In this document: positions 34,686-38,553 of the stretch, one piece after another
How positions within the stretch are numbered: position 1 is the first letter of the stretch
How the letters are laid out: each line of letters opens with the position of its first letter
Assembly (NCBI GenBank): GCA_964594835.1
Contig: CAZQNA010000004.1
Coordinates: forward strand, 1 to 64,000
Source: an uncultured Nitrososphaerota archaeon
GTDB taxonomy: Archaea; Korarchaeota; Korarchaeia; Korarchaeales; Korarchaeaceae
Direction of reading: 5' to 3'
Length of the DNA: 64,000 nucleotides
The notes under the pieces: model-generated
Told to the model about the DNA's origin: nothing
Database searches by the model: none
Seen by the model: only the letters and a program-made list of their open reading frames with translations
Program-made: the position numbers and the translations under genes

Positions 34686-35546
34686 TCACCCCTTGAACTC
34701 CACCGCGAACTTGGCGAATCGGACCCCCTCGAGGGTGGACACGGCGTCGTATATGGCCGCCTTCTCACCGGCGGTCGGGGGTCTGTCGAACACTATCTTG
34801 ACCCTTATGTCGTAGGCGAACATGTCCCACGCCTCCTCCGGCACCCACCTCCTCAGTATGGCGTCCAGCTTGGCGAGGTCCCTCCAGTTCATGTTCTCGA
34901 CCACGAGGTAGAAGGGGGCGACGGTCGAGCCCACGAACATGAAGAGGCCCGTGCACTCCTCGTTGATGTCCTCCTGGAGCCAGTAGATCGGAACCCTGTT
35001 TCCCCTGATCACCTCGGCCAGGCCTCCTCCCTGGAGCTTGAACGACACGAAGGCCTGGTAGCCCACGCCCCCGGACCCCACCGCCTCGACCACCTCGCCC
35101 ACCCTGTCGGCCAGATCCCTCAGCCCCTCCGTCCACAGTGGGTCGAGGCTCACTAGGAGCCTGTCAACGTCTCTGTCGACCCTCAGGGAGAGTCTGAGGG
35201 GGTCTACCTCCTGCGGCAGCGGATCCCTCACCTTCTGATCTGAGGAGTACACGAGGAGCACGTCCCCGCCTGCGCTGAAGTACAGGGTGGCCCTGGCCGA
35301 GTCGAGGACGAACCCGCTGGAGTTGATGACCGTCCCGTTCATGTGGACGCCGAGCAGGGACCCCCTCAGCGAGTACCCCCTCTTCCGATAGAAGTTGGCG
35401 ATGTAGGCGGCCGACTGACCGCTTCTCACGTCCCCACTGTAGTAGGAGTGGGAGTTCACCTTCATGTAAGCGACCCCGACGGCCGCGGTCAGGACGAGGA
35501 CGTCCAGGGCGATCCCGAGCGCCTTTAGAGTCCTCCCCGCCTCCAT
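34686..35546 (-). CDS. N-terminally anchored extracellular hypothetical protein
   Basis: Single TM (LDVLVLTAAVGVAY), NxT/S sequons; similar N-terminus to the upstream gene. Confidence 0.75.
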   Translation of the reverse strand: MEAGRTLKALGIALDVLVLTAAVGVAYMKVNSHSYYSGDVRSGQSAAYIANFYRKRGYSLRGSLLGVHMNGTVINSSGFVLDSARATLYFSAGGDVLLVYSSDQKVRDPLPQEVDPLRLSLRVDRDVDRLLVSLDPLWTEGLRDLADRVGEVVEAVGSGGVGYQAFVSFKLQGGGLAEVIRGNRVPIYWLQEDINEECTGLFMFVGSTVAPFYLVVENMNWRDLAKLDAILRRWVPEEAWDMFAYDIRVKIVFDRPPTAGEKAAIYDAVSTLEGVRFAKFAVEFKG

Positions 35547-35551
35547 CTCTC

Positions 35552-36379
35552 TCACCCCTCTAGCCTCGGCTCCACGTGGGTGGCCCCTAACTCTCTGAGG
35601 GCGTCGCCCACCTCTCCAGCGTCCGTCGACCTGGGGTCGATGAGGACCGTCACCCGGACTGGGCCCCACAGGACGTCCCTGACTGGAACCCCCTCCCTGC
35701 CCAGCACGCCTCGGATCTCGCCGAGCAGCGAGGCGGAGTCCTCGCCGGGCACGAACCTCATCCTCAGGATGATCTCATTCCCGGCCGTCTCGACCTCGAC
35801 GATTCCCCCCTCCCTCGCGGCCAGGTCCTGTATCATGCTGGCCGGTATGGTGACGTTGGACTCCTCCATCCAAACGGAGGCCGCGGCGGAGACCAGGCAG
35901 GCCTCGACGCCCCTAATCCCCGAGACAGCCGAGCAGAGGTCTCGGGCGTGGCCGCAGCCCCGCCCGCCGCCGGGGAACAGGGCGTCCACCCTCCTAACCC
36001 CCTCGGAGCTGGAAATCTTCAGGAGGACCCTGCTCGGGACGCCATCTACGTAGAGGGCGTCAAACTCGTCAGACAGGACGAGGACGCCCTTCTGGGCATC
36101 GTAGAGGACGAGCCTCTTGCTGTCCGCGTAGACCACCCTCCCAGCCGCCCTGAAGGATCCGCCGGCGAACCAGGCTCCCTCCACCTCCACGTCGACCGCG
36201 TACCCGCGGAGGGCGGAGCTGTGGTAAGTTGCGGCTATCCCCACCATGTTGGCTCCCCTTATGTCGAAGTACCTCTCTCTCGGGACCGCCGCCGCGTAAG
36301 CGATCCCCAGCACGACCAGCAGAACCGCGAGGTCAAGGACCAGACCCAGCGCACGCCTCCTCGGCTCGCCCTCACCCAA
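35552..36379 (-). CDS. N-terminally anchored extracellular hypothetical protein
   Basis: Single TM (LDLAVLLVVLGIAY); shares RGY-x(6-7)-G with the downstream gene. Confidence 0.75.
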   Translation of the reverse strand: MGEGEPRRRALGLVLDLAVLLVVLGIAYAAAVPRERYFDIRGANMVGIAATYHSSALRGYAVDVEVEGAWFAGGSFRAAGRVVYADSKRLVLYDAQKGVLVLSDEFDALYVDGVPSRVLLKISSSEGVRRVDALFPGGGRGCGHARDLCSAVSGIRGVEACLVSAAASVWMEESNVTIPASMIQDLAAREGGIVEVETAGNEIILRMRFVPGEDSASLLGEIRGVLGREGVPVRDVLWGPVRVTVLIDPRSTDAGEVGDALRELGATHVEPRLEG

Positions 36380-36467: not shown

Positions 36468-36875
36468 GTGCCCCACTACTACCACGGGCCAGTGGCCGTT
36501 CGCGGGCGGACTCCGACCGGAGGGAAGATCAGAAAGACTCGCAAGAAGAGGAAGAGGGAGCTCGGTAGGTTTCCGGCCCTAACCAAGGTGGGAGAGAGGC
36601 GGCTCAGGTTCATCCGGGCCATGGGCGGGAACTACAAGCTCAGGCTCCTGAGCGACAGCTACGCCAACGTGGTGGTCCCGGGCCAGGGGACCAAGAGGGT
36701 GAGGATCCTGGAGGTGGTCGACAACCCGGCGAGCAAGGTGTTCAGGCGGTACAAGATCATCACCCGCGGGGCCGTGATCAGGACGGAGCTGGGACTGGCC
36801 AGGGTAACGTCCAGCCCCGGCCAGCACGGGGTTATCAACGCCGTCCTGCTGGGAGAGGAGGCCTCTGCCTCCTGA
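36468..36875 (+). CDS. rps8e: 30S ribosomal protein S8e
   Basis: [30 protein letters not shown]. Confidence 0.97.
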
Positions 36876-36915: not shown

Positions 36916-37194
36916 CTGAGGCCTATCGGGGCGGTAGAGGGGGTCACGTCGTCCCGAAACTTCCTCGTTAGGTACTGCGGCCCAGTCGAGTACGATCCAA
37001 AGGACCTCAGGGTCGTGGACGAGGAGCTTCGTCAGGTGGGTGTCGTGAGGGATGTCATTGGGCCAGTCAGCTCCCCGTTCTTCCTGATCAAGATCACGAT
37101 CCCGCTGGATGAGGCCAGAGACTACGTGGGGAGACGGCTCTACCTCCTGGAGCCGCCCAATCTTCGGGCAAGGAAATTAAGGAAAGCCGTTTAA
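36916..37194 (+). CDS. gar1: H/ACA RNP protein Gar1 (not in ORF track; no canonical start codon)
   Basis: Frame reads LRPIGAVEGVTSSRNFLVR...VVDEELRQVGVVRDVIGPVSSPFFLIK...YVGRRLY; follows rps8e. Confidence 0.85.
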   Translation: MRPIGAVEGVTSSRNFLVRYCGPVEYDPKDLRVVDEELRQVGVVRDVIGPVSSPFFLIKITIPLDEARDYVGRRLYLLEPPNLRARKLRKAV

Positions 37195-37211: not shown

Positions 37212-37391
37212 ATGCCCCGGCGGTCCAGGCGCGGAGGTGGCGCTACTTGGCCAGAGCAGGTCAACCTGGTCGACCTGGTCGAGAGGCTGCTCTCGCTCCC
37301 GTGCACCACCTGCCAGAACCTCGGGAGGTGCTACGACTCGGCCGCGCTGGAGTGCGGAAAGCTCACCTCGCACCTCCTGCGAGATCCCTAA
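37212..37391 (+). CDS. 59-aa protein resembling the C-terminal Fe-S domain of TFEbeta/RPC34 (not in ORF track)
   Basis: MPRRSRRGGGATWPEQVNLVDLVERLLSLPCTTCQNLGRCYDSAALECGKLTSHLLRDP; PCxxC-x5-C-x7-C-xKL; between gar1 and trm1. Confidence 0.7.
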   Translation: MPRRSRRGGGATWPEQVNLVDLVERLLSLPCTTCQNLGRCYDSAALECGKLTSHLLRDP

Positions 37392-38553
37392 TCACCCTGA
37401 TCAACTCGCCGATCGGCGCGTCCGTCTTTATCGACTTCTTCTCACAGTGGGTGAGGCTGGCCCTGTATCCGAGGGATCTGAGGGCCTCGACCGTGGCCTT
37501 GGGGCTCGGGGATGGAAGTCTACTCCTGCTGGCAAGCGCGTCCAGGTCGTAGTAGAGGGGCGGGAGCCCGACCTCCCCCCGGATTGCCTCGATGATCTGC
37601 AGAGCCTCCCCCGATGAGTGGGCCCCCTCCCTGAGGATGGCGGCCACGGCTTCGACGACCTCCCCGTCCTGGAGATCCCCTACCCACATGGGCCCCATCC
37701 AGCTCAGTCTGGACCCACACTCCGGGCAGGATCCCCCCTCGGCCGGCGGCTCGCCAGCGTGCACAGACCTCCACCCGCACCTGGGACAGTAGGAGGTCCA
37801 CCCCAGCTCCCTGTCCAGGATCTCAGACGCCCTCAGGGCCCCCCTGTCGATCCGAAGGTACACCCTGGCGTAGTGCCTCGTGGCGTGAGCCAGCACCGGT
37901 CTGGCTGCCAGGTCGTAAACGGCCGCCACCCTGGCGGCGTAGGCGGCCAGGATCCTGAGGCCAGCCTCCTTGTGGAACTCGGCCTTGGTCCCCCTGGCGA
38001 AGTACACCCTGCGTAGCTTCCGGGGGTAGACCCCGTAGAGGACCGGCGTGTCGGTCGCGGTCAGCGCCAGGATGCCTCCGGGCCTCACGGCCCTCACGGC
38101 GGCCCAGAGGTAGGGGGAGGGCGTCCCGAACGGATCCACGTCCAGGTAGTCCACCCCACCCCCCTCCCTAAGGGCCAGCGAGGCGAGGTTCGCGTCCATC
38201 AGCCAGGCGTCGACCGATGACTCCAGCCCGTTTCTCCTGATCCCCATCCTTATCGCGTGGTACGCCAGGGGGTTTCTGTCGTTGGCCACCACCGTTGCCC
38301 CGGCCTCGGCCGCCAGCCTGAGCGCCCTGACGCCTGATGCTGCCATCACGTCCGCGGCCCTCACGCCCTCCCCGAGCCAGGAGGCCACGGCGACCGCCAC
38401 GTCCCTGTTCGACCTCATGTGCGGGTTGTAGAACACCCTCGCCTTCGTGTACGCGAGCCCGAGCCTCTCCAGCTCGTCGAGGTCCGAGGCGTAGAACCTG
38501 ACGGCCCCCTCCTCGTACTCCCTGAGCGAAACGGTTATTCTCCTCGGCCTCAC
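37363..38553 (-). CDS. trm1: tRNA (guanine26-N2)-dimethyltransferase
   Basis: VFYNPHM..NRD, ASGVRALR, DVDPFGTP, TATD, CPRC/CPEC zinc site. Confidence 0.95.
   Translation of the reverse strand: MRPRRITVSLREYEEGAVRFYASDLDELERLGLAYTKARVFYNPHMRSNRDVAVAVASWLGEGVRAADVMAASGVRALRLAAEAGATVVANDRNPLAYHAIRMGIRRNGLESSVDAWLMDANLASLALREGGGVDYLDVDPFGTPSPYLWAAVRAVRPGGILALTATDTPVLYGVYPRKLRRVYFARGTKAEFHKEAGLRILAAYAARVAAVYDLAARPVLAHATRHYARVYLRIDRGALRASEILDRELGWTSYCPRCGWRSVHAGEPPAEGGSCPECGSRLSWMGPMWVGDLQDGEVVEAVAAILREGAHSSGEALQIIEAIRGEVGLPPLYYDLDALASRSRLPSPSPKATVEALRSLGYRASLTHCEKKSIKTDAPIGELIRVIRDLAGGAR

Follow-up and report, generated by a model that had tools for sequence, protein, structure and literature searches.

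Our analysis supports the identification of a 59-codon gene in the window (the 64,000-nt stretch of DNA analysed here) as a truncated orthologue of tfeB that lacks the winged helix (WH) and has kept the Fe-S module. The identification rests on profile–profile homology to TFE-beta, the position of the gene in the tfeB slot, the full-length forms found in that slot and the lack of any other TFE-beta in the genome. A reading made earlier from the sequence alone had proposed just this, a TFE-beta minus its winged helix with the four-Cys module kept, and these four independent lines support it. We refer to the gene as mini-tfeB and to its product as mini-TFE-beta. By architecture, the product is not a canonical TFE-beta, since it has no WH, but it shares homology and synteny with the family and evolves under selection. 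We put the probability that it is a truncated TFE-beta orthologue which binds a [4Fe-4S] cluster and dimerises with TFE-alpha as an initiation subunit at roughly 0.75. TFE-beta, which corresponds in archaea to TFIIE-beta and RPC39, is a general transcription factor essential to Sulfolobus. The four-Cys domain of Sulfolobus TFE-beta and of human RPC39 carries a cubane [4Fe-4S] cluster.

The gene (37,212–37,391, plus strand) was delimited by its sole possible start, conservation, selection and an hhalign match. Its 59 codons run from an ATG at 37,212 to a TAA at 37,389–37,391, and the sequence reads as MPRRSRRGGGATWPEQVNLVDLVERLLSLPCTTCQNLGRCYDSAALECGKLTSHLLRDP. No ATG, GTG or TTG other than that at 37,212 occurs in the open frame before the Cys motif. 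The frame is shut on the 5' side by a TGA at 37,110–37,112; because this stop is in frame and the DNA there codes for gar1 in another frame, there is no space for an upstream domain. The variable N-terminal tail (residues 1–22; 37,212–37,277) is followed by a conserved helix and four-Cys domain (residues 23–59; 37,278–37,388) homologous to the [4Fe-4S] domain of TFE-beta/RPC6. The Cys motif, LPCTTCQNLGRC-x7-CGKLTSHL, follows the pattern C-x2-C-x5-C-x7-C, with the four Cys codons at 37,302–37,304, 37,311–37,313, 37,329–37,331 and 37,353–37,355 (37,302–37,355, plus strand).

Directly 5' of mini-tfeB lies gar1 (36,916–37,194, plus strand), which encodes an H/ACA RNP protein and was recognised by PF04410 and the NCBIfam Gar1 models. 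The gene for ribosomal protein S8e (36,468–36,875, plus strand; PF01201 5.5e-35, TIGR00307, synteny) is the first of the conserved block. On the other side, trm1 (37,363–38,553, minus strand) encodes a tRNA m2,2G methyltransferase (PF02005 1.3e-87; TIGR00308 287 bits, over the cut-off); it is convergent with mini-tfeB, and the two genes overlap tail-to-tail by 29 nt. Genes for an NTPase, fibrillarin and Nop5 lie farther along. The distance from the gar1 stop to the mini-tfeB start was 17 nt here, approximately 24 nt in f2 and approximately 100 nt in g2 (labels explained below). The sequence-only reading had described the ORF, its motif, the in-frame TGA at 37,110 and the trm1 overlap; all of these statements were correct on re-reading, and its placing of the ORF between gar1 and trm1 agreed with Pfam and NCBIfam for both neighbours.

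Related genomes were labelled by rank, with G000 for the genome of the window, g1 for its genus, f1 for its family, f1 and f2 together for its order and f3 for the sister order; the class comprised 40 species genomes and the whole phylum 43. When 41 related genomes were searched in six frames, mini-TFE-beta was found in the same genus at 56–67% identity, with weaker matches in other genera. The earlier reading had made its case depend on the persistence of the ORF and its four Cys in relatives, and 13 of the 40 class genomes gave credible matches to A3, a profile of the mini-TFE-beta family only. The four-Cys gene was present in the window's own genome and three of the four others of g1 (the one without it is 72% complete), and in 1/1 genomes of g4, 4/5 of g2, 2/2 of f2 and 2/2 of f3. 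The gene order S8e–Gar1–X–Trm1, in which X is mini-tfeB and converges with trm1, was kept in every credible locus (L001–L010, L013 and L014; locus L004 stops at a contig edge), and the block spans relatives in the genus, family, order and class. Some candidates were rejected. A match in the g2 genome G015 (75% complete) was spurious, with an E-value of 0.005 and two stops, and did not appear in a search with A6, the combined profile that includes canonical TFE-beta. Loci L011, L012 and L015 were also dropped as spurious, having internal stops and no synteny.

The 11 genomes of the order encode a protein of 57–61 aa with four invariant Cys (C-x2-C-x5-C-x7-9-C). The open frames holding the domain measured 60–102 aa in these 11 genomes and 146–152 aa in the two f3 genomes. 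In the mini-TFE-beta family, P30, C31, C34, C40, C48 and L51 are invariant; the four Cys were conserved in all 11 rows of the family alignment and in all 24 rows of A6, canonical TFE-beta included. Within the genus, the dN/dS of mini-tfeB against G000 was 0.13–0.23 (0.15 overall for G000 versus G004), and a comparison of G001 with G004 gave five synonymous and no non-synonymous changes. Codons 23–50 (G000 versus G004) had a pN of 0.12 and a pS of 0.76, while residues 1–22 evolve much faster than the Cys domain (pN 0.40, pS 0.69). The variable tail was thus delimited by its high pN together with weak conservation in A1 and A3 and low pLDDT: the AlphaFold2 model of the monomer was poor (pLDDT 59) and fell below 50 at residues 1–4 and 7–10. 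Its charge differs among genera, being basic in this genome and in g2 but acidic in g4, and the acidic tail of g4 led us to reject a basic tail as a substitute for the WH.

This pattern of change indicates that the 59-codon ORF is a real gene under purifying selection. The opposite reading is a functionless ORF, either the decaying remnant of a tfeB or a chance frame in GC-rich DNA. Such a reading would accommodate the complete loss of the gene in related genera and the overlapping ORFs of similar length that occur in other frames of the GC-rich region. However, the frame is open in 11/11 order-level genomes bearing the gene, whose base compositions differ greatly, the start position is conserved, and no variation occurs at the four Cys, P30 or L51. 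With replacement changes strongly under-represented as well, a functionless ORF is largely refuted, and we consider it hardly credible.

Longer relatives of the protein were found in the same genomic position. In the mini-tfeB slot, the two f3 genomes encode a protein of 135–136 aa with a helix-turn-helix-like N-terminal region and the same Cys domain, and the three genomes of other classes of the phylum include proteins of 118 and 123 aa with a WH and the Cys domain, encoded beside trm1. As an independent reference set, 11 TFE-beta proteins (A4) were taken from the neighbouring large phylum (that of G034); scanned singly, all 11 matched PF05158 (RNA_pol_Rpc34). Aligned with hhalign, A3 matched A4 with a probability of 96.5% and an E-value of 7.2e-10; the alignment spans 41 columns, pairs all four Cys and takes in residues 21–59 of mini-TFE-beta. 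The full-length forms of the window's own phylum (A9) matched A4 over 108 columns including the WH (99.0%, E 9e-18). In HMMER searches, A3 retrieved the 118-aa WH and Fe-S protein of G031 (E 6.4e-8) and a protein of G029 (E 0.002). Against the PDB, A6 matched residues 275–314 of human RPC6, its C-terminal [4Fe-4S] domain (E 3.4e-7, 29 entries).

Several other searches were empty. Pfam and NCBIfam scans gave no match to the 59-aa ORF, and the 136-aa f3 form had no PF05158 match and one weak, irrelevant match in Pfam. In the PDB, profiles A1 and A3 and a phmmer search with the f3 form found no RPC6. The A4 HMM did not recover the 59-aa ORF from its own genome at E ≤ 10, and a protein atlas search with mini-TFE-beta returned no usable match. 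The profile test proposed in the sequence-only reading was hence answered in part, positively by hhalign to TFE-beta (96.5%) and negatively by PF05158, by NCBIfam and by the PDB search with the short family. The tie of the short family to TFE-beta is accordingly drawn from hhalign, one HMMER match to an intermediate and synteny, and its tie to RPC6 is only transitive, running through A6 and failing with A3 alone.

The earlier reading had also placed crenarchaeal tfeB near gar1 and trm1, and this synteny proved right. Among the 18 TFE-beta-type loci examined, 16 adjoined trm1, which is convergent with canonical tfeB, and gar1 was also seen in three.

The failure of Pfam to detect the ORF can be compared with its performance in the phylum of G034. 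There, PF05158 was found in 25 of 121 sampled genomes at E ≤ 0.001 and exceeded its curated cut-off in 8. The A6 Fe-S domain was detected in 121/121 genomes, which is expected since A6 holds sequences of that phylum; more telling are the lengths, with 122 matches in open frames of 116–321 aa and none shorter. PF05158 is insensitive for archaea, as seen in 8/121 genomes over the cut-off versus 121/121 with the Fe-S-domain profile. Pfam-based calls of an absent TFE-beta in archaea are therefore unreliable, and such calls merit a second look with a profile restricted to the Fe-S domain.

In mini-TFE-beta, 30 residues precede the first Cys, and the N-terminal winged helix of TFE-beta/RPC34, the homologue of WH2 of RPC39, is missing. 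Nor was it found elsewhere in the genome, which is 97.4% complete in 24 contigs. The best PF05158 match over this genome had an E-value of 0.14. Apart from WH bits at the C-termini of unrelated proteins of 397, 403 and 538 aa, A4 found nothing, and a search with the WH portion of the f3 protein gave no match at E ≤ 10. The earlier reading would have been undermined by a full-length tfeB elsewhere; no other TFE-beta was found in this 97.4% complete genome. These searches also bear on a split gene, in which the WH half of TFE-beta would be encoded elsewhere and the two pieces would come together as an ordinary TFE-beta. Small WH proteins are common in archaeal genomes, one of 113 aa at L091 being an example, and a diverged WH half could evade a single-sequence search; the genome, moreover, is 97.4% complete and in 24 contigs. 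Against this, the WH taken from the closest full-length relative had no match in the genome at E ≤ 10, the TFE-beta profile touched only the C-terminal WH of the three unrelated proteins, and the locus itself has no room, with a gap between gar1 and mini-tfeB of 17 nt here and approximately 24 nt in the f2 relative. We regard a split gene as very unlikely.

A TFE-alpha that could partner a truncated TFE-beta is encoded on contig 13 of the genome (L089:1468–2001; 177 aa; PF02002 44 bits, over the cut-off), and TFE-alpha was detected in 39 of the 43 genomes of the phylum. We modelled TFE-alpha (alignment A7) together with mini-TFE-beta (alignment A6) and a 4Fe-4S ligand. Three runs gave ipSAE values of 0.78, 0.71 and 0.70, compared with 0.24 for the best control, although similar solved complexes exist and this pass may partly reflect memory. 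In calibration, 58 of 80 solved complexes attain the mark applied, as do 2 of 110 mismatched pairs; these rates are only roughly valid for a model built with our own alignments and a ligand. Contact agreement among the runs was at least 77%, and partner pLDDT at least 70. The predicted interface joins residues 2–19, 56, 91–125 and 153–176 of TFE-alpha to residues 17–57 of mini-TFE-beta. [quoted passage not shown]

Two positions of TFE-alpha vary with the presence of mini-tfeB. Residues 108 and 172 are the sole positions among 177 that are large and hydrophobic in 9/9 sequences from genomes bearing the gene and in 0/11 from genomes without it, a descriptive comparison with at most two independent losses behind it. 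Position 108 is L or V where the gene is present and E or D where it is absent; position 172 is V, L or I versus A. Both fall within the predicted interface, which covers 41 positions.

We considered whether the four-Cys mini-protein might derive from TFE-beta and have taken up a new job, binding Zn or Fe-S and not partnering TFE-alpha; it might bind RNA polymerase directly or act with the RNA-modification genes gar1 and trm1. The shortened spacer before the fourth Cys would suit such a role, as would the first interpretation of the domain as a Zn finger (PMC2770514, in part). Two genera hold an intact TFE-alpha without the gene, which shows that TFE-alpha is independent of it in those genera. 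The tight linkage to gar1 and trm1 might point the same way; it is, however, inherited from canonical tfeB and is therefore uninformative. Moreover, the model with TFE-alpha beats its controls and uses regions of TFE-alpha that have been mapped experimentally, and the interface residues 108 and 172 of TFE-alpha are altered only in genomes lacking the gene. A new job is thus improbable in our estimation, though it retains some weight, and mini-TFE-beta most likely works as an Fe-S dimerisation subunit of TFE-alpha.

The mechanism that we propose starts from a tfeB that would have lost its N-terminal WH, leaving the four-Cys domain at the C-terminus and, ahead of it, a short helix that serves as linker. 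The 59-aa protein would hold a [4Fe-4S] cluster, and its four-Cys domain would dimerise with TFE-alpha through the WH, the next helix and the C-terminal tail of the latter. The dimer would bind the clamp of RNA polymerase and aid the melting of promoter DNA, and would lack the extra stabilisation of the preinitiation complex (PIC) that the WH of TFE-beta supplies. The shorter spacer before the fourth Cys suggests that the type and stability of the cluster could differ from those in canonical TFE-beta, and the sequence by itself is compatible with Zn as well as Fe-S.

Outside the genera listed above, the Fe-S domain was absent from much of the family. With A3 and A6 at E < 0.01, it was found in 0/21 genomes of g3, 14 of them at least 90% complete, and in 0/4 genomes of g5; the best stray matches in these two genera had E-values of 0.06–0.25. 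In five trm1 loci of g3 and g5, gar1 is directly adjacent to trm1 or to an NTPase gene in inverted orientation, and no mini-tfeB ORF was seen. Full-length TFE-alpha was kept in 20/21 genomes of g3 and 3/4 of g5. Methanocaldococcus jannaschii and Pyrococcus furiosus have TFE-alpha-only systems, and Korarchaeum is reported to have one. The g3 and g5 genera appear alike in having TFE-alpha alone, unlike the genome of the window, in which the Fe-S module of TFE-beta is still kept.

The phylum therefore shows three states of tfeB, namely full-length (WH and FeS), WH-less and absent. By rank, the simplest history has the full-length gene of f3, f4 and f5 as ancestral, a loss of the WH in the ancestor of the order (f1 and f2) and subsequent full loss in g3 and g5. 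The complete losses amount to one or two events; in the Trm1 tree, the genera of the family were unresolved (four open forks). Since the three states co-occur in a small phylum, the WH-less form looks like a stable intermediate toward a TFE-alpha-only system. The phylum thus offers a graded set of cases in which to study the reduction of an initiation factor from two subunits to a single one.

The g3 and g5 loci differed from the window in other ways. In L048–L052, an additional ORF lies between S8e and gar1, which the window does not have; it is a putative SRP19 gene (VIYPSYFDSRLSRKDGRRVP). The g3 loci also have the NTPase gene in inverted orientation, placed between gar1 and trm1.

Published surveys describe the Korarchaeota as lacking TFE-beta. 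Blombach et al. (2009) reported RPC34 orthologues in all Crenarchaeota and Thaumarchaeota and not in Korarchaeum cryptofilum (PMC2770514, in part), and a review of 2018 called TFE-beta 'missing in Korarchaeota' (PMC7289017, excerpt). That statement, as worded in the excerpt, fits the gene-less genus of 21 species and is contradicted for the group as a whole by the genome of the window and its relatives. Our results show that part of the Korarchaeota keeps tfeB in a form missed by size filters and by Pfam, and that deeper members have it at full length. A search of the text of open-access papers turned up no account of a TFE-beta without a WH.

The closest known counterparts are the archaeal TFE-beta proteins of Saccharolobus solfataricus (Sso0944) and S. 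acidocaldarius (Saci_1342), which have a homologous PC-x2-C-x5-C-xn-C domain (Blombach et al. 2015, PMC4495717, in part). Their gene occupies the same position as mini-tfeB, convergent with trm1 and near gar1, and TFE-alpha is present here too as the likely partner. They differ in having an N-terminal WH and a length of approximately 118–140 aa, whereas mini-TFE-beta has no WH and 59 aa. The C-terminal signature of TFE-beta/RPC34 is CxxC-x(3-5)-C-x(4-10)-C (PMC2770514, in part), and the C31-x2-C34-x5-C40-x7-C48 of mini-TFE-beta conforms to it. In the S. solfataricus protein, the Cys are C92, C95, C101 and C112 (PMC4495717, in part); the spacer before the fourth Cys is 10–11 residues in canonical TFE-beta, compared with 7–9 in the mini-TFE-beta family. 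RPC34/RPC39/RPC6 (PF05158; human RPC6 in PDB 7a6h, 7ae1 and 7d58, among others) has the C-terminal four-Cys [4Fe-4S] domain in common with mini-TFE-beta, but RPC6 is a stable polymerase subunit with three WH domains and mini-TFE-beta has none.

Experiments on Sulfolobus in the excerpts of PMC4495717 included a construct that resembles mini-TFE-beta. TFE-beta without residues 1–73 retained dimerisation and binding to the RNAP clamp, and deletion of its WH merely lowered the stimulation of the PIC. In the mutants C92S, C95S and C112S, both the cluster and the complex were gone. Mini-TFE-beta aligns to approximately residues 62–125 of the S. solfataricus protein and is therefore a natural counterpart of the engineered TFE-beta minus 1–73. 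As a match to this minimal construct, it allows a direct test of which functions of TFE-beta cannot be dispensed with.

Short proteins with the Fe-S domain were also found outside the lineage. A library search with A6 yielded 346 proteins at E ≤ 0.001; among the best 150 of these 346, 17 were 81 aa or shorter, five of them from the lineage of the window. Some of the short proteins among these best 150 were fragments, such as P0117, which starts inside the WH, and three that lack an initial M. The stand-alone forms comprised a cluster of 20 members, all of 51–53 aa, on contigs of up to 66.7 kb; a 62-aa protein labelled Asgardarchaeia; and a cluster of 63–66 aa labelled Thermoprotei/Thermofilum, on contigs of up to 474 kb. 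Among the matches listed, the short forms outside the lineage had the canonical spacer of 10–11 residues before the fourth Cys. It is conceivable that in vivo the core function of TFE-beta resides in its Fe-S domain alone, with Korarchaeota holding a series from WH and FeS through FeS to none and with independent losses of the WH in Asgard and Thermoprotei-labelled lineages; a subunit of 50–70 aa would then act as a detachable switch, dependent on iron and redox state, that makes TFE-alpha a strong initiation factor instead of a weak one. This broader idea is tentative, and we rate it below even odds.

The stand-alone short Fe-S-domain proteins outside the phylum were the P0050 cluster, P0143 and the P0073 cluster, and those with a name were called 'hypothetical protein'. 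Three further proteins (P0096, P0099 and P0123) have a TFE-beta-type Fe-S domain at the very N-terminus, another architecture without a WH. In two of them, a C2H2-like zinc-finger motif (HICHVCGKE...HITRIH) follows the Fe-S domain; two of the three begin with L and may be partial.

A word-indexed protein search with mini-TFE-beta gave a sole match, a predicted 59-aa protein of 98% identity already present in a public data set. Proteins of the g2 type appear in NCBI records as 'hypothetical protein [Candidatus Korarchaeota archaeon]' or '[Thermoproteota archaeon]'. The g2 alignment as a query for related loci led to three MAG loci; the single ORF as a query gave 599 pattern matches, none of them confirmed as a relative.

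Upstream of mini-tfeB, the A/T-rich stretch that the sequence-only reading had pointed to was present at 37,172–37,194. Within the 3' end of gar1, a candidate TATA-like block of 18 nt (GGCAAGGAAATTAAGGAA; 37,167–37,184, plus strand) is nearly unchanged in the genus, with 17 of 18 positions invariant in four genomes (alignment A8). Inside this block, AAATTAA lies 31–37 nt before the mini-tfeB ATG. The block may be a TATA-like element followed by a very short leader, or it may simply reflect constraint on Gar1. Mini-tfeB could equally well be co-transcribed with gar1 as have a promoter of its own.

For the conserved N-terminus of Gar1 (RLRPIGAVEGVTSSRNFLV), there is no ATG, GTG or TTG between a stop at 36,805 and a GTG at 37,015. 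The CTG at 36,916 is kept in G004 and aligned with the ATG or TTG starts of gar1 in relatives; it is probably the gar1 start in the genus. Upstream of the S8e gene, two ORFs of 327 and 275 aa adjoin on the minus strand (34,686–36,379). Each has one hydrophobic segment near its N-terminus, and the two may be paralogues.
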